In this document: positions 6,114 to 18,863 of the stretch, one piece after another
Position numbering within the stretch: the stretch's first letter is position 1
How the letters are laid out: the number at the start of each line of letters is the position of its first letter
Virus record (IMG/VR): IMGVR_UViG_2778261530_000007
DNA: 37,462 nucleotides
DNA from: a virus
Lineage: Duplodnaviria > Heunggongvirae > Uroviricota > Caudoviricetes
Reading direction: 5' to 3' (one strand)
Notes under the pieces: model-generated
The model's database searches: none
What the model saw: the letters and a program-made list of their open reading frames with translations, nothing else
What the model was told of the DNA's origin: nothing
Position numbers and translations under genes: made by a program

Positions 6114-6250
6114 AGCAGTATCAGGATTTTTTAGTATGCCGTTCTCACAAAAAAACCGCTTGCCATGCCGCAATCAGTCAGGTTACATTTCCGCTGCACC
6201 TCATAAAACGGGTGCCGGGATTGGAACCCCGCTGACAACCAAAGCGCACA

Positions 6251-6270
6251 ACCGCGCCAGCGGTTTTTTT
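6251..6270 (+). terminator. Rho-independent terminator (ACCGCGCCAGCGGT followed by T7)
   Basis: GC stem followed directly by TTTTTTT. Confidence 0.55.
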
Positions 6271-6449
6271 GTGCGTACCGTATCGCCACGTCGTTTTCGC
6301 ACACGAATTATGGTGGGGCGTATGGGGCCGACTTCGGTCGGGCCGGGTTCTTTGGTTGCCGGTAGTTCCAACCCTGTACGTCTCACCACCCCGAGCTTGG
6401 AACCTCTGGATGGTGAGTTTTCAAAACTTACAACCAAAGAGGCCACACC

Positions 6450-7124: not shown

Positions 7125-9947
7125 ATGACGGCAGAGTACATCAGGGACTGGCAACAACCGCGCCACGCAGTGGGGCGTGAAGGAACGGGGATCCCCGCTC
7201 CTGAATCCGCGCTTTCCTCCTGGCTGGATGCCTACCGGGCAGAGAACGAGCGCCGCCAGGAAATGGCTGATGCGGCGTTCTCCGCCACGCCGCTGGGCAA
7301 CCTGATTAATAAAAACCTGGACGCACAGGAAAAACAGGACAAAACCATCACACTGGCAGGAGACGCCAGAAAACAGGCACGCGGCGCGGTGGATGAAGCC
7401 ATGGCCTCGCTGCGCCTGCTGCCGTCCTATCTGCGCGATCCGCTTATTCGCCACCTCTCCTTCCTGCGCAAAAAACAGGAAGCCGATCGCCGGAAAGGCA
7501 AAAAGAGCTGGCAGGCGGAACGCTATGCACGCGGAACCCTGCGCAAAATATTCGAACGTCTGGATCGCACTGACGGACACTGGCTGACACCGGGTTATCG
7601 CTCCCTTGCCGGACGCGAACGCCTGGACGATTTGCTTTACCTGCCGCAGCTCAACAAACACCAGATACAGACGCTGGCCACCATGACGGCGGCGATGTTC
7701 AGCAGCACCTTCGAAAAACTCTGCGATGGCTTTGGCGCGACCGATGGCGAACTGACCATGGATGTAACGCTGAAGGCGTATCAGATGCTGGCCCGCATGG
7801 CGTTACACCTGCACATCATGCCTCCACATTATGACGCACTGACAACAGATAAAGACCGGAGGAACGAACCGGACACGGAGCTGCTGCCGGGCGCAATCCT
7901 TCGCCTGACCTGTGCGGAATGGTGGAAACGCAAACTGTGGCTGTTACGTTGCGAGTGGAGAGAAGAACAACTCCGCGCCGCCTGTCTGGTTTCCAGAAAA
8001 ACATCACCCTATCTGAGCCAGGACGCGTTAAGCGAGTTTCGCGCACAGCGCGAGAAAACACGCGATTTCCTGAAAAGTTTCATGCTGGAAAACGAAGACG
8101 GGTTCACGATTGATCTCGAGACAGTGTATTACGCGGGAGTAAGTAACCCGGTTCACCGTAAGGCAGAAATGATGGCCACCATGAAGGGGCTGGAACTTCT
8201 GGCCGAAGCCCGTGGCGACAAAGCGGTGTTTCTGACTGTCACCTGCCCGTCAAAATACCACGCCACAACAGAGAACGGTCATCCGAATCCCAGATGGAAC
8301 GGGGCCACCATGCGCGACTCCAGCGATTACCTGGTTAACACGTTTTTTGCAGCGGTCCGCAAGAAACTGAACCGCGATGGCCTGCGCTGGTATGGCATCC
8401 GCACGGTGGAGCCTCACCATGACGGCACCGTGCACTGGCATATGATGGTCTTTGCTCATCCGGAAGAAATCGACAGCATTGTGGCCATCACCCGCGATAT
8501 TGCCATTCAGGAAGACCGCCACGAGCTGGGCGATGACATAACTCCGCGTTTTAAGGCGGAGTACGTAGACGGCTCAAAAGGCACACCAACCAGCTATATC
8601 GCGACCTACATCGGAAAAAACCTGGACAGCCGCGCCGTGGATGGCATCGACCCGAAAACGGGCAAGCCACGCGTTGACCACGAAACCGGAAAATCAATGG
8701 CAGAGAGCGTGGAACGCGCCATCGGCTGGGCGCGCCTTCACCGGGTCCGCCAGTTCCAGTTCTTTGGTATCCCCTCCCGTCAGGTGTGGCGTGAACTGCG
8801 TCGCCTTGCCAGCCAGATGGCACGCAACCCGGAAGGCCCGCAACGGCTGAAGGATGACGCAATGGACTCGGTTCTTGCTGCCGCTGATGCCGGATGTTTT
8901 GCCACCTACATAGAGAAACAGGGCGGCGTACTTGTTCCACGCAAAGACTACCTGATTCGCACCGCCTACGACCTCGCAGATGAGCTGAACGATTACGGCG
9001 AACAGAGCGTACAGATTTACGGGATCTGGTCACCACTCATCGGGGAATCCTCCCGTGTGTGCACGCATCCGGATAACTGGAAGCTGGTAAGACGTAAACC
9101 AGAACCGGAAGACAACGCCCACGAAAATGGTTTTGACCTTCAGGGCGGCCCTGCCGCCCCTTGGACTCGTGGCAATAACTGTCCCCGTGTACAGGAAACG
9201 GACAACAACGGGACAGAACAGCCGGAAGAACGGCCAGCACCGTGGCCGCAGCTCCCTGACGGCGTTGAAGTGAACGAATGGATGCGCTCACTGAAACGGC
9301 ACGAACGCCGGGCGCTGATGCGTTCGCTTCGTGACAAACAGGCAAAAAACAGCAGTGATGAAATGCAGAGCTGGACACAGAGCCGCAAACAGCAGCGGCC
9401 TTTGCCTGATAACCACGAATTACTCGCTAAAGAATGGCGGGAGTCTGCTGAATCTCTCGGCCTGCATATCGGTGAACAACAGATGCAGCACCTGTTACGG
9501 GGCGGCAGTCTGTACGTTGACGGCAGCATCATTGCACCGCAGGGATTTGAAATTGTACGCAAACCGGATACCCGCCCGGACAGCCGAATCACGCAGCTCT
9601 GGCAGCGCCTGAGCCGTAATCATGGCGTAAGCAGCACGGAGATCCGCCATAACCCGGTCGCCAGCTATCTGGCACAGCTGGGGGCATCAGACCCTGAAGC
9701 CGCCGCACGCCTGGCATCCACACTTCAGCAGGACCAGAACACCATGAAAACACCCGTTACCGTGCTTTCTGACATGCTGCGCGCCATCCGCGACGCAGAG
9801 CACGCACAGAGAATCAGTGAAACCACTGAACGCGCCAGCCGCAAAGCAGACCTGCTGCGGGGTGGCCTGACCAGTGGAAACAAAAAACAGACAGAAACGG
9901 GACTCACGAATCCCGTAAATGAGCAAAAAACGTGCCGCGATATATGA
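7125..9947 (+). CDS. A: Replication initiation endonuclease (P2 gpA family, rolling-circle nickase); 940 aa with a long C-terminal extension
   Basis: HUH-type metal motif (TVHWHMMVF) and paired-tyrosine active-site motif (YIATYIGKN); position after the early genes. Confidence 0.9.
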   Translation: MTAEYIRDWQQPRHAVGREGTGIPAPESALSSWLDAYRAENERRQEMADAAFSATPLGNLINKNLDAQEKQDKTITLAGDARKQARGAVDEAMASLRLLPSYLRDPLIRHLSFLRKKQEADRRKGKKSWQAERYARGTLRKIFERLDRTDGHWLTPGYRSLAGRERLDDLLYLPQLNKHQIQTLATMTAAMFSSTFEKLCDGFGATDGELTMDVTLKAYQMLARMALHLHIMPPHYDALTTDKDRRNEPDTELLPGAILRLTCAEWWKRKLWLLRCEWREEQLRAACLVSRKTSPYLSQDALSEFRAQREKTRDFLKSFMLENEDGFTIDLETVYYAGVSNPVHRKAEMMATMKGLELLAEARGDKAVFLTVTCPSKYHATTENGHPNPRWNGATMRDSSDYLVNTFFAAVRKKLNRDGLRWYGIRTVEPHHDGTVHWHMMVFAHPEEIDSIVAITRDIAIQEDRHELGDDITPRFKAEYVDGSKGTPTSYIATYIGKNLDSRAVDGIDPKTGKPRVDHETGKSMAESVERAIGWARLHRVRQFQFFGIPSRQVWRELRRLASQMARNPEGPQRLKDDAMDSVLAAADAGCFATYIEKQGGVLVPRKDYLIRTAYDLADELNDYGEQSVQIYGIWSPLIGESSRVCTHPDNWKLVRRKPEPEDNAHENGFDLQGGPAAPWTRGNNCPRVQETDNNGTEQPEERPAPWPQLPDGVEVNEWMRSLKRHERRALMRSLRDKQAKNSSDEMQSWTQSRKQQRPLPDNHELLAKEWRESAESLGLHIGEQQMQHLLRGGSLYVDGSIIAPQGFEIVRKPDTRPDSRITQLWQRLSRNHGVSSTEIRHNPVASYLAQLGASDPEAAARLASTLQQDQNTMKTPVTVLSDMLRAIRDAEHAQRISETTERASRKADLLRGGLTSGNKKQTETGLTNPVNEQKTCRDI

Positions 9948-9995
9948 AGCGCGCACAAAACAGGCAAAAGCGGGATTTAAAAATCCTGTAAACGA
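9899..9995. promoter_or_regulatory. Two copies of a 25-bp site CGGGA-N7-ATCC(C/T)G-TAAA(T/C)GA (9899..9923 and 9972..9996), each with an internal inverted repeat; candidate ParR-binding (parC-like) site or promoter operator for parM
   Basis: Read directly: CGGGACTCACGAATCCCGTAAATGA and CGGGATTTAAAAATCCTGTAAACGA, about 73 bp apart, immediately upstream of parM. Confidence 0.4.
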
Positions 9996-10023
9996 TTAAT
10001 TAATCAACATAAGGAAAAGCGAC

Positions 10024-10983
10024 ATGAAAATTTGTATCGACGACGGCTCCACCAACATCAAGCTGGCATGGACTGAGAACGGCGAACGCCGCAACGCCAT
10101 CAGCCCGAACAGCTTCAAGTCGGAATGGTCTGCGCCGTTCGGTGGCACGCAGCCCGCGAACTACATGCTTGATGGCGTGCGCTATGGTTTTGATCCGGTC
10201 AGCGATCGCTTTGTCCAGACGACCGACACGCAATACCAGTACAGCGATGTGAATGTCATTGCCATTCATCACGCGCTGGTCAAATCAGGCATCACGCCAC
10301 AGGAGGTGGATGTGGTTGTCACCCTGCCACTGAGCGAGTATTTCGACACAAACGCACAGCCGGACATAGCCAACATCAACCGCAAAAAAGCGAACGTTAT
10401 GCGCCCGGTGGAGTACCAGAACGGCGAAGCATTCACTATCCGTAACGTGCGGGTTATGCCTGAATCCATTCCGGCTGGCTTTAAGGCACTGGCTGACATG
10501 AGTCCGTTTGAATCCCTGCTGATTGTGGATTTGGGCGGAACCACGCTGGATGTGGCAAAGGTTCAGGGGCAACTGGCAGGTATCAGCCAGGTGTTTTGCG
10601 ATCCACACGTAGGCGTTTCTATGATGGCCGATGCCGTACTGTCGGTGATGGCCACTAACGGTATGCGCACCAGTCACCACATCGCCAATACCATTATCGA
10701 ACATCGCCATGATGAAGCCTGGCTGCGCCAGCACATCCACAATGACGCGCATTACGCCAGCCTGATGGCGGTTATTCGTGAAAAGGAAGAAACACTGAAA
10801 CAACGCGTGATCCGCGCACTGGCGGGTTTTTCGGGTTACGGGCGGGTGATGGTTGTCGGTGGCGGGGCGGAGATTGTGGCACCCGCTATCCGCGAAGCCT
10901 GCGGAGTTAATGCGACTTTCATCGCGGACGGGGTGCCACAGTTTGCTCTGGTTAATGGGCTGTACGCAATGGACAAGGAGTAA
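10024..10983 (+). CDS. parM: ParM/StbA-family actin-like segregation ATPase
   Basis: Strong similarity to plasmid R1 ParM as recalled (ICIDDGSTNIKLAW, ISPNSFK, YQYSDVNV, VMPESIPAG, DLGGTTLDV, GGGAEI, LVNGLY). Confidence 0.88.
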   Translation: MKICIDDGSTNIKLAWTENGERRNAISPNSFKSEWSAPFGGTQPANYMLDGVRYGFDPVSDRFVQTTDTQYQYSDVNVIAIHHALVKSGITPQEVDVVVTLPLSEYFDTNAQPDIANINRKKANVMRPVEYQNGEAFTIRNVRVMPESIPAGFKALADMSPFESLLIVDLGGTTLDVAKVQGQLAGISQVFCDPHVGVSMMADAVLSVMATNGMRTSHHIANTIIEHRHDEAWLRQHIHNDAHYASLMAVIREKEETLKQRVIRALAGFSGYGRVMVVGGGAEIVAPAIREACGVNATFIADGVPQFALVNGLYAMDKE

Positions 10984-10987
10984 ACCA

Positions 10988-11299
10988 ATGACGACACCAA
11001 CCAGACGGATAAGTTTCTATCTGAAGCCCGCCGCCGTCAAGAACGAAGGTGAAGCATGCGCCTGGCTGGACAGCCTTACACCAGAAGCGCGCAAAAGCGG
11101 CCAACGCGTGGCTTTTCTGGCCGGGCTGGCACTTCTGAAAATGAATCCGGCAGAGGCTTACCGACTGGCTGCATGGGCTGATGATGAAGCGTTATCAGTG
11201 ACACAAACCAGGACAGAACGCCCCGCGTCACAGCCAGTATCAACCGCACAGATAACCAGTCAGATGGCCGGAAATATCCGGGCGTTATTTCCCGAATAA
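10988..11299 (+). CDS. parR: ParR-like partition adaptor protein
   Basis: Immediately downstream of parM with AAGGAG RBS; motifs shared with R1 ParR as recalled (RRISFYLKP vs RRTIAFKLNP; FLAGLALL vs LTAGLALY; IRALFPE vs ILRSLFPKE). Confidence 0.7.
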   Translation: MTTPTRRISFYLKPAAVKNEGEACAWLDSLTPEARKSGQRVAFLAGLALLKMNPAEAYRLAAWADDEALSVTQTRTERPASQPVSTAQITSQMAGNIRALFPE

Positions 11300-11304
11300 C
11301 ACAA

Positions 11305-11328
11305 CATCAGGGCGCATCCGCCCTGATG
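11305..11328 (+). terminator. Perfect hairpin (10-bp stem CATCAGGGCG / CGCCCTGATG, 4-nt loop) between parR and the ZBD gene; terminator, attenuator or protein-binding palindrome
   Basis: Inverted repeat read from the sequence. Confidence 0.4.
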
Positions 11329-11362
11329 ACTTTAACCCGGGAACATAAACAAGGGGGACACA

Positions 11363-11698
11363 ATGCAACGCATTGACAGAGAAAAAGCGCAGCGACTGAT
11401 TGAGCGGATGGAAGCGCTGGCGAAAGAAGAAAATGTCAACATCCAAAAAATAGCTGAATGTGGCCAGATAGTTCTTCGTCGTGAAAAAGACCTCAAACAA
11501 CTGATGTCTGGCGAAACCAGCAAAACATGGACTTCAGGTGAGGAGACGATTTATTGCAGCTTCTGCAATAAATCCCAGTACGAAGTCACAAAGGTGATTG
11601 CCGGACCGTCTGTTTACATCTGCAATGAGTGCGTTGATTTGTGCAATGAAGTTATCAGGAGAGAAGTGACAGACCATGAAGAAAAAACGCATGAATGA
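11363..11698 (+). CDS. Small protein with a C-terminal ClpX-type C4 zinc-binding domain (ZBD) and a novel N-terminal helical region; lacks the AAA+ module
   Basis: C-terminus [39 protein letters not shown] closely matches the ClpX N-terminal zinc finger as recalled ([39 protein letters not shown]). Confidence 0.8.
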
Positions 11699-11864: not shown

Positions 11865-12272
11865 TTAAATATAATCTTCTTCGTAGTCGCTGATTAATTC
11901 ATTGCCATAATCAGACAGCAATTTCAAAGCAAAGGTAACTTCCTCAAGGGTAGCTATCCCCATTGCTGAAAACACCGTTAATTTAACCAGCAGCAGGGAG
12001 TTTGAAAGTTCGGAAGAGTTCATCATTAAAAATATTGATGCAGCCTGAAAAGCTGTGCGTTTATTCCCATCATGAAAGGCATGAGCCTTGGCTATACCAA
12101 TCAAATACATAGCAGCCAGAGCATGAATATCATCAACCCCTTCATAGTAGTGTAGTGTCCTGACGCGATTTAAAGCACCTTCAAGTAGCCCGTCATTGGC
12201 ATTTCCGCTCTGGGGTAAAGTTTCAGCATGGATACGTTCTACTTGTTCTTTTGACAAAAACACTATGTCCAT
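11865..12272 (-). CDS. doc: Doc (death-on-curing) Fic-fold toxin
   Basis: Fic/Doc signature HAFHDGNKRTA; start overlaps the stop of the upstream antitoxin gene (TGATG). Confidence 0.85.
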   Translation of the reverse strand: MDIVFLSKEQVERIHAETLPQSGNANDGLLEGALNRVRTLHYYEGVDDIHALAAMYLIGIAKAHAFHDGNKRTAFQAASIFLMMNSSELSNSLLLVKLTVFSAMGIATLEEVTFALKLLSDYGNELISDYEEDYI

Positions 12273-12628
12273 CAGTTATCCTCAAGCTTTTTAATGATAT
12301 CCGCATGTTTTTCTCTTGTACGCTTCATTGCATCTTCAAAAGACAATCCTTTTTTTCTCTGTGCGACAAGAGCTGGATGACGTTTTTCCAGATCTCTCAC
12401 TGCATTTATTAAGAGTGGTTGCTTCATTTTGTTTATTTGATCCCGCAGTTTTTTGGTTTTGCCAAGGACAGCCCGTATTTCAGGACTAAGATCAGAACCA
12501 GCAAGAACAACATCCTTCCCTCCCTGCGCCGTGATAACGACACTGCCACCGGAAGAAAGGTAATCCAGAATTTCACTCAGGTTCTCACGAAATTCATCAT
12601 CAGTTACAGTTTTCATATTCATTTCCAT
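12272..12628 (-). CDS. phd: Putative Phd/YefM-type antitoxin with C-terminal extension, cognate to Doc
   Basis: Upstream of and translationally coupled to doc; N-terminal region resembles the Phd/YefM fold pattern (EFRENLSEILDYLSSGGSVVITAQGGKDVVL). Confidence 0.6.
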   Translation of the reverse strand: MEMNMKTVTDDEFRENLSEILDYLSSGGSVVITAQGGKDVVLAGSDLSPEIRAVLGKTKKLRDQINKMKQPLLINAVRDLEKRHPALVAQRKKGLSFEDAMKRTREKHADIIKKLEDN

Positions 12629-12702
12629 TATGCACGCCCATAACGTAAGTATAACGGCTTGTTGGGCAGTAATAACACCGCCATATTTTCATTTTATACA
12701 CC

Positions 12703-12799
12703 GCACAATAGTGCACAAATTTGCACAATTTTTTTGAACAACTTTTTACCCTTCCGGCCCGCGTGGCGACTGGATCCGTCAAGGATCCGTGCGTGCACA
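12703..12799. repeat. Direct repeats of TGCACAA at 10-bp phasing (12703..12728) with a further copy at 12793..12799, plus GGATCCGT-N3-GGATCCGT (12772..12790), in the non-coding region between phd and Q
   Basis: Read directly from the sequence; function unknown (operator, packaging or centromere-like site). Confidence 0.35.
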
Positions 12800-13103
12800 A
12801 AAAAACGCGCTTTTTCTGCGCGCAGGTGACGGGGGAACAGCCCGCGTTTCAGGGGGTAAATAGCATCCCCTGAACGATGTCGCAGCGACACAACAGAATG
12901 GCTGTATTTCTCACGCTGAGCGTGAAAAAGACGTGAGGGCTTTTGATTTGATGGGGTGAAAGGTAAGGCCGTCAAAATCGCACTGAGACGGCGAGAACAT
13001 GCAGTCAACGCGGTGGGATTGCGTAAGAGTCTGACTGTCGATGATGGCAATAAGCAGGAAAGCGTCGTGAAATTATCTGATTGATACAGGAGCTGGAGAG
13101 TCG

Positions 13104-13126
13104 GGGCATAAATTTTTTATGCCCCG
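13104..13126. other. Perfect 10-bp-stem hairpin GGGGCATAAA-TTT-TTTATGCCCC just downstream of Q on the minus strand
   Basis: Inverted repeat read from the sequence; may be the Q/P operon terminator or part of the packaging region. Confidence 0.35.
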
Positions 13127-13152
13127 GCGAAGCAGCAGACAAGCGAAGCGCG

Positions 13153-14199
13153 TCAGGATGTGGGCTGGGTGTCTAACAGTGCGTAAGGGTTAAAGCGGAT
13201 CACCTCTTCGCCAAGCCAGTCATTGATGTGCTTTATGGCCTCCATGACAGGCATCAGCTCGTTAATTGCGTAAACCCGCGCGGCCTTCTCCACATCGCCA
13301 AACGCACTTTTTTCGCCCGGCATCGCCCCCATCAGTTGCGGCGGAACGCGGTGCGCAGCCAGCACATCATCACGGGATGCCGCCTTAACATTCATGAACT
13401 CATCCTTTGCGGTGATCTGCTGGAACGGCAAAATTTGCACCCCCTCTTTGCCCCCGTTGGGCGCATGGATGAGCACGTTTTTAAACGCACCACCACCACG
13501 CGCACCCTGTAACGTTTCTTTCAGGGAGTCCATGCTTTCGCGGTTTACCTGCGCTGCACCGATGTAGATGATGCACCCGGCGTGGGATCCATTGTCGTAA
13601 TACAGTTTTCTGAACATGTCCGCCGAATGAGACAGGCTGGCCGAGAGTAATGCGCCAAGATATTCCGGCATGCCGTAAATTTCCTGGTTAATGTCCGGAT
13701 TCATCAGGTGGCACACTTTGCCAGGGCGAAACTGAAACGCGTCCTTGCCATCCTGCACATACCACCATGATTCAAGATCGCTTCCGCGTCGCATGTATTT
13801 CGCCAGTGCGTGCCGTAATTTAAGTGGTTCGCCGAGCATATTGCTCCGAAGCTCAAGGAATGCGTTACCGAACACAAACCAGTCCAGCGCCAGCGCCGAG
13901 AAATCCTGCCGGGAAAGCAGCGGGTGCGGGATGTAGCAACCGAGCAATACATTGCGCTTAAAGTAAAGCGCAGACTGATGCCAGGACGTTTGCCGGGCAG
14001 CTCTTGCCAGACCGTACCAGTCCACCGGGGTTTCATACCACCGCCCGTTATCAGCACAGTACATATTGTCCAGCAGGTCATGCCCGGTCAGGCGATAAGG
14101 ACCATCAAATGTGAATGCACTGAGCGATGATTCTTTCCTGAGCGCATCAGCGAGATCAATGCGTGAACTCATGCGCACTTTTTTATTTTTTCTGCTCAT
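13153..14199 (-). CDS. Q: Portal protein (P2 gpQ)
   Basis: Position and length match P2 Q; coupled to the terminase gene (stop/start overlap at 14199). Confidence 0.9.
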   Translation of the reverse strand: MSRKNKKVRMSSRIDLADALRKESSLSAFTFDGPYRLTGHDLLDNMYCADNGRWYETPVDWYGLARAARQTSWHQSALYFKRNVLLGCYIPHPLLSRQDFSALALDWFVFGNAFLELRSNMLGEPLKLRHALAKYMRRGSDLESWWYVQDGKDAFQFRPGKVCHLMNPDINQEIYGMPEYLGALLSASLSHSADMFRKLYYDNGSHAGCIIYIGAAQVNRESMDSLKETLQGARGGGAFKNVLIHAPNGGKEGVQILPFQQITAKDEFMNVKAASRDDVLAAHRVPPQLMGAMPGEKSAFGDVEKAARVYAINELMPVMEAIKHINDWLGEEVIRFNPYALLDTQPTS

Positions 14200-15950
14200 C
14201 AGAACTCCATAACCGTGAAACGCTCGTTTTCTCCTTCGCCGCCAATCGGTTCGTTAATGACAGCAAGCATGGTTGCCCACGCAAGGTCGCCGTGGCTGAT
14301 CCCCCTCGCACGGTCCGTTTCGTAAGTGATAAAGCCGCCCGGTGTTTTCACCTTACGCACGGCGTTAAAGGCCGCGACCAGCTCGCGTTCGGCGCGATCG
14401 TATTCCCACCGCCCGGCACGCATTATTTGCAGCATTTTCAGTACCAGCGACCGTTTTGATGACAGCGTGAAGGTGTACGGAATAGCAGCAGGGAAAAACC
14501 GTTTCACTATCTGATAAACAGCCTCCCCGTTCCCGCCCGTCACATCAATGCCGATGTGTTCCACGTTGTAGCGATACGTGAACTCTTCAATGACTCTGGC
14601 CTGTTCTTCAAACTCCAGCCCCTGAACGCGTCGCGTCTCCACCGTTCGAAAACGGCCACCAGGAACAGCCGGAGGAACCACCACGGACACAGCGCCGCTG
14701 TCGCCGTTTCCACTGCTGCCGTTTGCGTCATACCCAATCCATACCGGACGATTCCCCATCGGGCGGGGAGCAAAAGGTTTCCAGTCTTTCCAGTCGTCGT
14801 ATCCGTCAACACCGCAGCCAATCAGGATATTCAGGTTAAATGCCGATTCCCCTTCGCGGACAAATTCACACATATAGAGATTGCGGAACTCGTCTTCGGT
14901 GTTTTCATCACGAATTTCGTCGATATCGGTGTGTTTCCAGCCGTGATTAACCACATCTTCCAGCGTGACAATTTGCCGCCACGTCCGGTCAGGGCAGATA
15001 AGCCCGTTATGCAGCGTTTTCCAGTCCACAGAAAAACGCTGGCGTTTATGCGAGGCCTTTTTCTCGTTCCAGCGGTCACCGTTCCAGTAGGCGTATGCCT
15101 CGTGCGTTTCGGTGGATGGCGTGGAGAAGTAGGTGCGCCGCAGTCCGCTGAGGGTTGCCATAGCGCCAGCCACCTTGCGCAGTTCAGCAAAGCGACTGAC
15201 CCAGAAGAATTCATCAAAATAAAAATTGCCCGTATAGGACTGTGCCGACGCAGCAGAAGTGCCGAGAAAATGCAGCTCTGCGCCGTTGGAGAGGATGATT
15301 TTATCGCCCCCTTTCAGCTCCACATCAACTTCAGCCGCGGCCTTCTGAATAATGCTTTTAAACTGGAACGCCTGACGACGCGACGCAGACAAAAAAATCT
15401 GGTTACGCTGGTAAGGTTGCGCCACATCGTCACGCAGCGCCATCAGCAGTGCTTCCTGTGCAAAATACCAGGTCGCCCCAATCTGTCGGGATTTCAGGAT
15501 CATCCTGTTACGTATCCCGGCTTCCCTGCAAAGGGTCAGGGAGTCAAACCAGCCCCGCTGATGCCACTCCAGCCTGCTGATGATTTTTTCCCGCAGTGCG
15601 GCAATCTGTTCCGGCGTGAAATGATTTTTGAGTTTTTTCGCCCGGCCTTTCTTTCCTGTGGCCGTCGCATCCGGCTGGCCATCATGCAGTTTTTTAAGCT
15701 GCCGGGTCAGCAGGTCTATTTCCTTGAAGTCACCACCTGTTTTATTCTGTTTTTCAGTGAGCTGGATGAGGCGCGCATCGATGGACTGCGTGACACGCTG
15801 CACGGGTGGTGTTTCATCCCACTGGTCGCGTTTTTTCCACGCATAAATCGTGTTCGGGTTTATTCCCATCAGACGTGATATTTCTGCGGGCGGATAACCC
15901 TGCCAGTAAAGTTGTCGCGCACGCTGGCGCACAAAAGCGTCCTGAATCAT
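14199..15950 (-). CDS. P: Terminase large (ATPase) subunit (P2 gpP)
   Basis: 583 aa, divergent from the capsid operon as in P2; position upstream of Q. Confidence 0.92.
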   Translation of the reverse strand: MIQDAFVRQRARQLYWQGYPPAEISRLMGINPNTIYAWKKRDQWDETPPVQRVTQSIDARLIQLTEKQNKTGGDFKEIDLLTRQLKKLHDGQPDATATGKKGRAKKLKNHFTPEQIAALREKIISRLEWHQRGWFDSLTLCREAGIRNRMILKSRQIGATWYFAQEALLMALRDDVAQPYQRNQIFLSASRRQAFQFKSIIQKAAAEVDVELKGGDKIILSNGAELHFLGTSAASAQSYTGNFYFDEFFWVSRFAELRKVAGAMATLSGLRRTYFSTPSTETHEAYAYWNGDRWNEKKASHKRQRFSVDWKTLHNGLICPDRTWRQIVTLEDVVNHGWKHTDIDEIRDENTEDEFRNLYMCEFVREGESAFNLNILIGCGVDGYDDWKDWKPFAPRPMGNRPVWIGYDANGSSGNGDSGAVSVVVPPAVPGGRFRTVETRRVQGLEFEEQARVIEEFTYRYNVEHIGIDVTGGNGEAVYQIVKRFFPAAIPYTFTLSSKRSLVLKMLQIMRAGRWEYDRAERELVAAFNAVRKVKTPGGFITYETDRARGISHGDLAWATMLAVINEPIGGEGENERFTVMEF

Positions 15951-18062: not shown

Positions 18063-18863
18063 ATGATTACTCCTGCACAACAACACTGGCAGAACGTGAT
18101 GGCACAGCGCGCAGGTCGGGCGAATGAAGGCGTGGACCACGCCGCGCGTACCGCGCATGAAGAGGTGCTGTATCGTCTGCGTCTGGCACAGGCCCGGCTT
18201 AAGGGCGTACAGGCCAGAAGCGCGAAAGCCGCCATCAAAAAAGAGTTGTTGCCGGATTTTTCCGGCTGGATTGAGGGAACGCTGGAGGCTGACGGCGGGC
18301 AGCAGGATGAAGTGATTGCCACGCTGATGGTGTGGGCGATTGACTGCGGCGATCTTCCGCTTGCGTTGCGTATTGGTGCGTATGTGGTCCGTCATAACCT
18401 CATTATGCCGGATAACTTTGGCCGTACTGCTGCCACGGTACTGACCGAAGAAATCTGCAACCCGGTACTGACGCAGGCCGGGACGGATGCTGACGCGGAT
18501 TTGTCCGCCTTTATCGAACCACTGGACACCCTCCGGGAGATTGTCACAGACCAGGACATGCCGGACGAAGTGCGCGCCAAATTATGCAAGGCGTGCGCCT
18601 TTGCCCGTCGTGGTCTGACCGATGCGGACAGCATGGCCCTGTCACTGAAGCTGCTGCGCGAAGCGATGCACCTGAACCCGAACGCAGGTGTGAAACGCGA
18701 GATTGCAACCCTTTTCCGCACCCTGAAAAAAGCCGATTCCGCAGCCGCACCAGAAGACGCCAGCACACCGCAGGCGCAGGACGAAAGCAGCAAAAGTAAA
18801 AAGACAACGCGGAAGCCTGCAACACGAAAAACCACCGCGACGCAGAAGGCGAAGCGCGGTTAA
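18063..18863 (+). CDS. M: Terminase small / endonuclease subunit (P2 gpM)
   Basis: Similarity to P2 M as recalled (DMPDEVRAKL, basic C-terminal tail). Confidence 0.9.
   Translation: MITPAQQHWQNVMAQRAGRANEGVDHAARTAHEEVLYRLRLAQARLKGVQARSAKAAIKKELLPDFSGWIEGTLEADGGQQDEVIATLMVWAIDCGDLPLALRIGAYVVRHNLIMPDNFGRTAATVLTEEICNPVLTQAGTDADADLSAFIEPLDTLREIVTDQDMPDEVRAKLCKACAFARRGLTDADSMALSLKLLREAMHLNPNAGVKREIATLFRTLKKADSAAAPEDASTPQAQDESSKSKKTTRKPATRKTTATQKAKRG

Follow-up and report, generated by a model that had tools for sequence, protein, structure and literature searches.

A probable P2-family cos packaging site in the gap between phd-doc and the portal gene of a P88-type prophage

The virus record IMGVR_UViG_2778261530_000007 (37,462 nucleotides; this whole stretch of DNA is referred to as the window) contains a P2-like prophage in which a gap at positions 12629-13152 separates the leftward phd-doc genes from the portal gene, a homologue of P2 Q that is also oriented leftward and has its 3' end at the gap. 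The question raised by this locus is which function the repeat-rich gap fulfils. A preliminary description of the sequence expected the cohesive-end site (cos) and terminase recognition elements in this place, could not match a P2-type cos by eye and considered the phd promoter-operator as an alternative. The analysis described here indicates that the gap very probably contains the cos packaging site of a P88-type (Xuanwuvirus-like) P2-family prophage, which by sequence comparison would span positions 12702-12847 (Table 1). The expectation of cos and terminase recognition elements is supported by the layout of the region, by conservation across genera and by intermediate loci, and the failure to recognise a P2-type cos by eye is explained by a diverged core, which agrees with that of P2 at 13 of 19 positions.

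The layout was compared with the cos sites of P2, 186, PSP3 and P4 (NC_001895, NC_001317, NC_005340 and NC_001609), whose cohesive ends are annotated in GenBank and whose record ends were joined for this purpose; passages of PMC9122126 and PMC3931495 credit these sites to Ziermann and Calendar (1990). In all four genomes, TGCAT boxes start approximately 124, 111, 101 and 29 bp ahead of the cohesive end, counted to its first base, and the fourth TGCAT, which is located 72 bp after the third, is followed by AAAA, a GC-rich element, the 19-nucleotide (nt) end and TGCGCGC. In the window, TGCAC boxes are found 123, 113, 103 and 31 bp before position 12825, and GGTGACGGGGGAACAGCCC occupies the place of the P2 sequence GGCGAGGCGGGGAAAGCAC. 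The fourth box is the counterpart of TGCATTAAAA in P2, 186, P4 and PSP3, and its occupancy is 0.93-0.95 in both types of cos. A phased-box pattern, in which three phased TGCAY boxes lie about 100-125 bp and a fourth box with an A-run lies about 30 bp before the core, was derived here from these four genomes and from 108 P2-type loci, and the window contains this pattern. Among 102 unique P88-type loci, the occupancy of the boxes at their offsets amounts to 0.79-0.93; the corresponding range for 108 unique P2-type loci is 0.43-0.95, compared to a background of 0.0015 per position. The position within the genome also agrees: cos is annotated directly beyond the 3' end of the portal gene in P2 and 186, and the block in the window is likewise located between variable cargo on the gpA-proximal side and the 3' end of a P2-type portal gene. 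A Q homologue adjoins the right side of the core in 113 of 120 IMG/VR loci among the matches listed. In the alignment to the cos regions of P2 and 186, which had been proposed as a check, the order and the distances of the elements agree, but the match of the core is not significant on its own.

The repeats in the gap are real and non-random. The preliminary description reported TGCACAA repeats with a phasing of 10 bp; the hexamer GCACAA indeed starts at 12703, 12713 and 12723, but the first heptamer reads CGCACAA, while the second and third are TGCACAA. In most relatives, this first box is TGCAC(A/G)A. A phased triple of this kind is expected 0.01 times per shuffled window. As a word, TGCACAA is not enriched in the window (6 copies observed, 9.6 expected), and three of the six copies are clustered within 90 bp in the gap. 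The further copy of TGCACAA that had been placed at 12793 exists, but it occupies 12794-12800, and 12793 is the start of GTGCACAA. The direct repeat described at 12772-12790 was found as such, with 0.01 occurrences expected by chance. Since this GGATCCGT pair is only about 60-66% conserved and confined to the P88 group of E. coli and Salmonella, and other genera as well as P2, 186 and P4 carry different GC-rich dyads in its place, it is not a core element of cos. Dyads of the form TGT-N12-ACA, which resemble binding sites of late activators, are not enriched in the window (7 versus 9.6 expected), and none of them is located within the boxes.

The position at which conservation starts and stops is well defined. 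A blastn search of the gap against phage records yielded P88-type phages of the genus Xuanwuvirus (P88, phiSM, P88_4B11 and others) with 92-96% identity, and in nearly all of them the match starts at 12703, that is, with the first box. In an alignment of 100 unique IMG/VR relatives, identity rises from about 20-30% to at least 90% exactly at this position. The match to the Enterobacter phage phiT5282H (Novemvirus) covers only 12703-12846, and the stretch in common with Klebsiella phages of the genus Reipivirus is restricted to 12813-12846. As judged from these alignments, the cos block is the only part of the gap that is conserved across genera. A second sample consisted of 39 loci, one genome per species, which were fetched by portal-protein homology alone. 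The exact 11-mer GGTGACGGGGG is present at most 1.2 kb downstream of Q in 25 of these 39 loci, with approximately 0.0006 occurrences expected per locus, and the portal proteins of these 25 loci are 63-99% identical to that of the window at the amino acid level. The loci stem from Salmonella, Citrobacter, Edwardsiella, Serratia, Symbiopectobacterium, Kluyvera, Kosakonia, Enterobacter, Mixta, Pantoea, Klebsiella, Izhakiella and Erwinia. Among the sequences chosen by Q homology, 21 unique ones can be stacked without gaps and carry the individual boxes in 15 to 21 cases; box 3 is present in all 21, and the T-tract behind it is nearly invariant. In these loci, the conserved stretch reaches from box 1 to about position +22 after the start of the core.

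The predicted core belongs to a family of 19-nt sequences with the pattern GGTGACGGGGG-NNN-AGCCC. It is preceded by the GC-rich context TGCGCGCA, which resembles the context of the bottom-strand nick of P2, GCGCGCA^GTGC. Two intermediate loci are informative in this respect. Locus L366 combines P88-type boxes with GCGCGCA directly before the P2-like GGCGAGGCGGGG, reading GGCGAGGCGGGGG, and locus L343 has GGCGCCGGGGGG in the same place. At the level of sequence, these intermediates link both types of cos and fix the register with P2, and they suggest a top-strand cut at 12824^12825. The core was evaluated as a G-rich relative of GGCGAGGCGGGGAAAGCAC of about 19 nt with GC-rich, quasi-symmetric flanks; the ungapped comparison of 12825-12843 with the P2 cos gives 13 of 19 identical positions, which is not significant alone. 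The direct matching of the cohesive ends of P2, 186, phiCTX, RSA1 and Smp131 to the gap, with a chance-level best score of 13 of 19, was rejected as stand-alone evidence. Since the core match to P2 is no better than chance, the cos assignment is based on the layout, the conservation and the intermediates.

Several points speak against the assignment and have to be set beside this evidence. Nine other places in the window equal the score of 13/19, and positions 13095-13113 reach 12/19. The IMG/VR set was picked with an 18-mer of the core, which renders the invariance of the core in this set circular; the blastn match to phiT5282H, the Reipivirus matches and the loci fetched by Q homology are independent of the core. 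Neither public records nor IMG/VR contigs with an end at the site were found, and literature searches for a P88 cos sequence or a Xuanwuvirus cos yielded no end mapping for a P88-type phage. The length of the overhang (18, 19 or 21 nt) and the polarity of the predicted ends are assumptions taken from relatives, the length of 19 nt being adopted by analogy with P2. The protein that reads the boxes is known only at the level of candidates, namely the gpM homologue, the N-terminal helix-turn-helix domain of the gpP homologue or a host factor. Furthermore, base 1 of the P88_4B11 record does not represent a physical genome end, because it was chosen relative to reference genomes. The sequence of this record (LR595891.1; loci L003 and L392) was opened within the cos block, at a point between box 3 and the spacer (window position 12746/12747), and its start at window position 12747 was discarded as a physical end for the same reason. 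One IMG/VR locus (L120) only appeared to be a contig that ends at the site, as the retrieved locus stopped there.

If the block acts as cos, the following mechanism can be proposed by analogy. Late in infection, the terminase, formed by the small and the large subunit, would recognise circular phage DNA via the four direct TGCAC boxes. Boxes 1 to 3 are spaced by one helical turn each, with a T-tract behind them, and box 4, which is 72 bp or about seven turns away, has an A-tract behind it; both tracts should bend the DNA. Because of the 10-bp phasing and the distance of about seven turns to box 4, all four boxes would face the same side of the bent DNA, and an oligomeric small terminase could wrap this segment. 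The nuclease of the large subunit would thereby be placed about 30 bp away, on quasi-symmetric GC-rich sites that flank GGTGACGGGGGAACAGCCC. Staggered nicks, in the top strand probably at 12824^12825, would then generate 5' cohesive ends of roughly 19 nt. The gpM homologue, which is 36% identical to P2 gpM, is proposed to bind the boxes because the layout resembles that of lambda cosB, in which the large subunit is brought onto cosN by sites for the small terminase together with a bend. The N-terminal helix-turn-helix domain of the gpP homologue (PF06056) may contribute to box binding. The sequence comparisons themselves demonstrate the position of the block at 12702-12847, its conserved layout, its pattern of conservation and its independence from the cargo; we infer protein binding, the cut positions and the overhang length from the analogy with these systems.

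It had also been suggested that the phased repeats are the promoter-operator of phd-doc, to which Phd or Phd-Doc would bind for autoregulation. The repeats are indeed located 75-100 bp upstream of the leftward phd gene, and in P2 the mRNA starts of the cargo genes old-tin are annotated 27-29 bp to the left of box 1, the -35 region of the promoter overlapping box 1. Against this, relatives whose cargo is quite different become homologous precisely from box 1 onwards: at least six unrelated sequences adjoin this box, and P88 and phiSM have other genes on the left side of the cos block. Among 5426 complete E. coli genomes, the cos block (from the boxes to Q) is present in 1142 and the phd-doc cassette in 20, and the site does not travel with this cassette. 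Because homology breaks at box 1 and because of this difference in frequency, the boxes are assigned to the phage backbone and not to phd-doc; the suggestion that they form the phd promoter-operator is therefore abandoned. The same boxes are found in P2, 186, PSP3, P4, phiT5282H and the Klebsiella phages, which have no phd at that position, and a promoter scan detected no sigma-70-type site on the minus strand at the boxes. Typical Phd/YefM operators are palindromic, whereas the boxes are direct repeats. Taken together, an operator function is extremely improbable, and the idea survives only in the sense that the boxes may overlap the upstream part of whichever cargo promoter is located there. 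According to the sequence comparisons, phd-doc is swappable cargo to the left of cos and not part of the cos element. Variable genes next to cos are known from the cargo hotspot between gpA and cos of P2-like phages (Rousset et al. 2022, PMC9122126). A direct repeat, ATAACG-N5-ATAACG, is present at 12639-12655 in the cargo-specific leader upstream of phd; this may be a more plausible place for a Phd operator than the boxes, but it may also have arisen by chance. Helically phased direct repeats are also typical of centromeres and origins, and the boxes could be iterons, either of a parC centromere for the ParM/ParR-like genes at 10024-11299 or of a replication origin. The genes for a ParM protein (PF06406, PF21523) and for a Plasmid_stab_B protein lie at a distance of 1.4-2.7 kb on the left side of the boxes, and no iteron array was found beside the partition genes, where the segments 9900-10060 and 11280-11380 were inspected for an iteron-like centromere. 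However, the same boxes are present in P2, 186, PSP3 and P4, in which no ParM is annotated (in all of P4 and in the cos-proximal parts of the others), and in phiT5282H, where the annotated neighbours do not include ParM. The distance of the boxes is fixed relative to the G-rich core and to Q, but not to parM. The P2 origin is located inside gene A, which is a further point against iterons. It is thus scarcely credible that the boxes have this function.

The hairpins of the gap could imply that its features mainly serve as transcriptional punctuation, with the hairpins at 13102-13126 and 12806-12822 ending the late leftward P-Q transcript ahead of the cargo and the repeats being incidental. The stable hairpin 27 nt behind Q, a terminator-like site on the minus strand at 12823-12805 and the terminators tQ of P2 and tW of 186, which are annotated at the equivalent place, are in favour of such a function. 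The preliminary description had noted a perfect hairpin with a 10-bp stem at 13104-13126; the hairpin is perfect, but its stem comprises 11 bp and it extends over 13102-13126. For the minus strand, a folding z-score of -3.3 was obtained, and for the plus strand one of -5.6. No U-tract follows the stem on either strand, and the terminator scan made no call; the hairpin is lineage-specific and absent from other subgroups. Rather than being part of cos, it probably serves the leftward P-Q transcript as a 3' hairpin or terminator. P2 has a hairpin in the position equivalent to 12806-12822, the fold energy of which is ordinary in the window (z = -0.7). Punctuation leaves the four boxes at fixed offsets and the invariance of GCGCGCAGGTGACGGGGG across genera unexplained, and phages of the phiT5282H-type subgroup lack the hairpin at 12806-12822, yet keep the A-tract and the core. 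It is compatible with cos as a second role but not as a replacement; as the main function of the gap it is very unlikely. Cos could also be cut elsewhere in the gap, for instance at 13095-13113 (GGAGAGTCGGGGCATAAAT), which overlaps the perfect hairpin, and the boxes would then be accessory or unrelated. This segment is close to the end of Q, and its score against the P2 and 186 cohesive ends almost equals that of 12825-12843. It is, however, conserved only in the E. coli P88 group, and relatives that keep the boxes and GGTGACGGGGG have unrelated sequence in this place; it also lacks, at the spacing seen in P2, 186 and P4, a fourth box with an A-tract and a GC-rich nick context, and the intermediates L366 and L343 put a P2-like core at the position of 12825. 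A cut at such an alternative place is therefore most improbable.

The gap was considered to be non-coding in the preliminary description, and this view is upheld as far as can be judged. Of 100 relatives, only 58-61 retain the small open reading frames (ORFs) at 12956-13084 and 13005-13142 in intact form, and a third-position bias is weak or lacking in them; they were therefore treated as non-coding. A search of the gap against Rfam yielded no match near a gathering score, the best one being far below it (gyrA RNA, 22 bits versus 45). Within 12840-12940, folding z-scores of -3.4 to -3.9 were obtained; the hairpins at 12848-12874 and 12904-12932 were rejected as conserved RNA structures, as natural variants break the pairs instead of compensating for them.

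The P4-like satellites provide a further view on the role of the boxes. According to PMC9122126, the cos region is all that these satellites have in common with their helpers. In the sampled P4-like satellites (L132-L211), the whole block from the boxes to the core is kept, conservation ends 7 bp after the core, directly behind TGCGCGC, and variable cargo begins where it ends. As the box-to-core block is retained in these elements, the boxes point to a role as packaging signal. All 73 readable P4-like loci among the matches listed have a core of the P2/186 type. Several P4-like satellites carry the core variants GGCGTGGCGGGGAGAGCAT and GGCGTGGCGGGGGGAGCAT, which mix P2-like and 186-like positions. 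No P4-like satellite with the P88-type cos variant was found in the sampled loci: among the IMG/VR matches listed, satellite-like loci account for 0 of 119 P88-type cos matches and for about 23 of 120 exact P2-type matches (Fisher p = 7e-8). Of the 119 P88-type loci, 113 have an adjacent Q and the rest are truncated, while the P2-type cos of the approximately 23 loci is located next to psu or other P4 genes. In the 5426 E. coli genomes, a 148-bp cos block was found in 1323 places and a 450-bp block from cos to Q in 1308 places, which argues against a sizeable population of cos copies without the Q-side flank. The window lacks the sequence features of a cos of P2/P4 specificity, for which a core of the type GGCG(A/T)GGCGGGG and TGCAT boxes common to helper phages and P4-like satellites would be expected, but instead carries GGTGACGGGGG and TGCAC boxes. 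It is conceivable, although we consider it rather doubtful, that the P88-type cos with TGCAC boxes and GGTGACGGGGG...AGCCC defines a second packaging-specificity group of enterobacterial P2-like phages, which is orthogonal to P2/186/P4 and unexploited by P4-like satellites. Cross-recognition by the P2 terminase, other satellite families with a P88-type cos or a sampling bias among the matches listed may speak against a separate group. If such a group existed, the divergence of cos could be understood as an escape from satellite piracy, and the 146-bp block could serve as an independent cosmid and packaging system.

The genes around the gap fit a P2-like prophage. The head module is located to the right of the gap, with Q-P oriented leftward and O-N-M rightward, the scaffold, capsid and small-terminase genes being rightward; to the left, gpA, ParM and cargo genes were identified from ORFs and Pfam matches. 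Between gpA and the cargo lies the pair of genes for ParM and the ParR-like Plasmid_stab_B protein (10024-11299). It is followed by an ORF of 111 amino acids with a ClpX-type C4 zinc finger (PF06689; 11363-11698), which is located between the partition genes and doc and whose P88 equivalent is inconsistently annotated as 'carboxylate-amine ligase' or ClpX. Two RNAs were recognised on the plus strand with Rfam scores above the gathering score, the Hfq-binding RNA isrK at 6196-6270 (69.5 bits) and a C4 antisense RNA at 6306-6393 (84.4 bits), both upstream of the gpA-like replication gene. The distance between the core and Q is usually about 210-340 bp; it amounts to 600-1150 bp in 15 of 113 IMG/VR loci and in three genome loci (L340, L345 and L375), indicating a possible second insertion site of smaller size in this interval. 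An insertion between cos and Q has been reported for phiRSY1-like phages (PMC5694545). One IMG/VR match without a Q homologue despite ample flanks (L112) was discarded as a chance match inside an ORF. Locus L365 (NZ_JBQPOM010000071.1), labelled Vagococcus sp. WN89Y and thus assigned to a Gram-positive genus, encodes a P88-type portal 99% identical to that of the window and has an identical cos block; it is probably a contamination or a mislabelled assembly.

Table 1. Features of the gap and of the adjoining genes in the window
Feature	Position	Strand	Remarks
Whole conserved cos block (boxes 1-4, spacer, nick context, predicted cohesive-end core, short right flank)	12702-12847	+	About 146 bp
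Box 1, CGCACAA	12702-12708	+	About 123 bp before the core; at the junction of cargo and backbone
Box 2, TGCACAA	12712-12718	+	About 113 bp before the core
Box 3, TGCACAA, then T7 tract (12729-12735)	12722-12735	+	About 103 bp before the core
GGATCCGT-N3-GGATCCGT, also GGATCC-N5-GGATCC dyad, in the spacer	12772-12790	+	Lineage-specific
Box 4, TGCACAA, with A7 tract (12799-12805)	12794-12805	+	About 31 bp before the core, 72 bp after box 3
GC hairpin CGCGC-TTTTTCT-GCGCG	12806-12822		T7 next on the minus strand, resembling an intrinsic terminator
GC-rich context TGCGCGCA before the predicted top-strand nick (12824^12825)	12817-12824	+	Nearly invariant across genera
Predicted cohesive-end core, G-rich 19-mer GGTGACGGGGGAACAGCCC	12825-12843	+	Ends uncertain by about 2 nt
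Lineage-specific spacer from cos to Q with several hairpins	12848-13101		Not conserved outside the P88 group
Hairpin, arms 13102-13112 and 13116-13126, 3-nt loop	13102-13126	-	11 bp, 100% complementary; 27 nt after the Q stop codon
doc	11865-12272	-	Fic/DOC, PF02661
phd	12272-12628	-	PF02604, slightly under its cut-off
Portal gene (P2 gpQ homologue)	13153-14199	-	PF04860
Large terminase (P2 gpP homologue), N-terminal helix-turn-helix domain	14199-15950	-	PF03237, PF17289, PF06056
Small terminase (P2 gpM homologue), candidate box reader	18063-18863	+	PF05944, E = 6e-37

The cos block is a diverged and so far unannotated member of the P2-family cos sites and, as such, an ordinary phage element, and the understanding of cos packaging is unchanged by its identification. 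It is present in about a fifth of the complete E. coli genomes and also in many other Enterobacterales, and no annotated feature was found under it in any of about 70 E. coli records among the matches listed. Strain BCE049 (NZ_CP042250.1) carries a block that is 100% identical to that of the window. Its identity as cos would show where the genomes of P88-type phages physically end and where their records should start, and the block fixes the right border of the defence and cargo hotspot to the base. Furthermore, the phased boxes common to P2, 186 and P4 are testable candidates for the terminase recognition sites of the P2 family. The fact that the P88-type variant was not seen in P4-like satellites suggests distinct helper-satellite specificity groups.

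A comparison with known systems shows how the site relates to other members of the family. The variable genes directly to the left of the boxes, in the window phd-doc, occupy the P2 cargo hotspot described between gpA and cos (PMC9122126); what is described here is not the cargo, but the conserved right border of this hotspot, which is placed to the base at box 1 (12702/12703). Like P2, 186, PSP3 and P4, the prophage has its putative cos flanked by the cargo hotspot on one side and by the 3' end of the portal gene on the other, and it encodes homologous small terminase, large terminase and portal proteins. The order and spacing of the elements are also the same: three phased TGCA(C/T) boxes are separated by about 72 bp from box 4 and its A-run, behind which come a GC-rich element, the G-rich core of about 19 nt and a flank that is again rich in GC. 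In contrast to these four genomes, however, the boxes of the window are TGCAC(A/G)A and not TGCAT, they are spaced by 10 and 10 bp instead of 12-13 and 10 bp, and the core GGTGACGGGGGAACAGCCC is identical to GGCGAGGCGGGGAAAGCAC at only 13 of 19 positions. TGCGCGC precedes the core in the window, whereas it follows the core in P2, and the distance between cos and Q is about 310 bp as opposed to 167 bp in P2. The portal protein of the window is about 45-49% identical to those of the aligned loci with a P2-type cos. The cos sites of P2, 186, PSP3 and P4 are mapped, while the ends in the window are predictions from the sequence. phiCTX (NC_003278) also has a P2-family cos, in which cosL and cosR are flanked by the annotated repeats R3-R6 and a site for integration host factor (IHF). 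Its TGCAGAAAAA element about 27 bp before the core AGGCGTGGCGGGGGGACGACT and the GCGCGC after the core resemble the layout in the window; phiCTX differs by its CGCAGAAAG-like repeats, its 21-nt end and its Pseudomonas host. Phage lambda has ends of 12 nt, and P2-type phages package from monomeric circles. There is no sequence homology between the site and lambda cos, and the small terminase belongs to PF05944 and not to the Nu1 family of lambda. Nevertheless, the arrangement may be compared with cosB-cosN of lambda, which consists of R sites, the IHF site I1 and the nicking site (for a general account, see PMC7617512): in both cases, repeated sites for the small terminase, putative ones in the window, would be located on one side of a quasi-symmetric nicking site, with a DNA bend in between.

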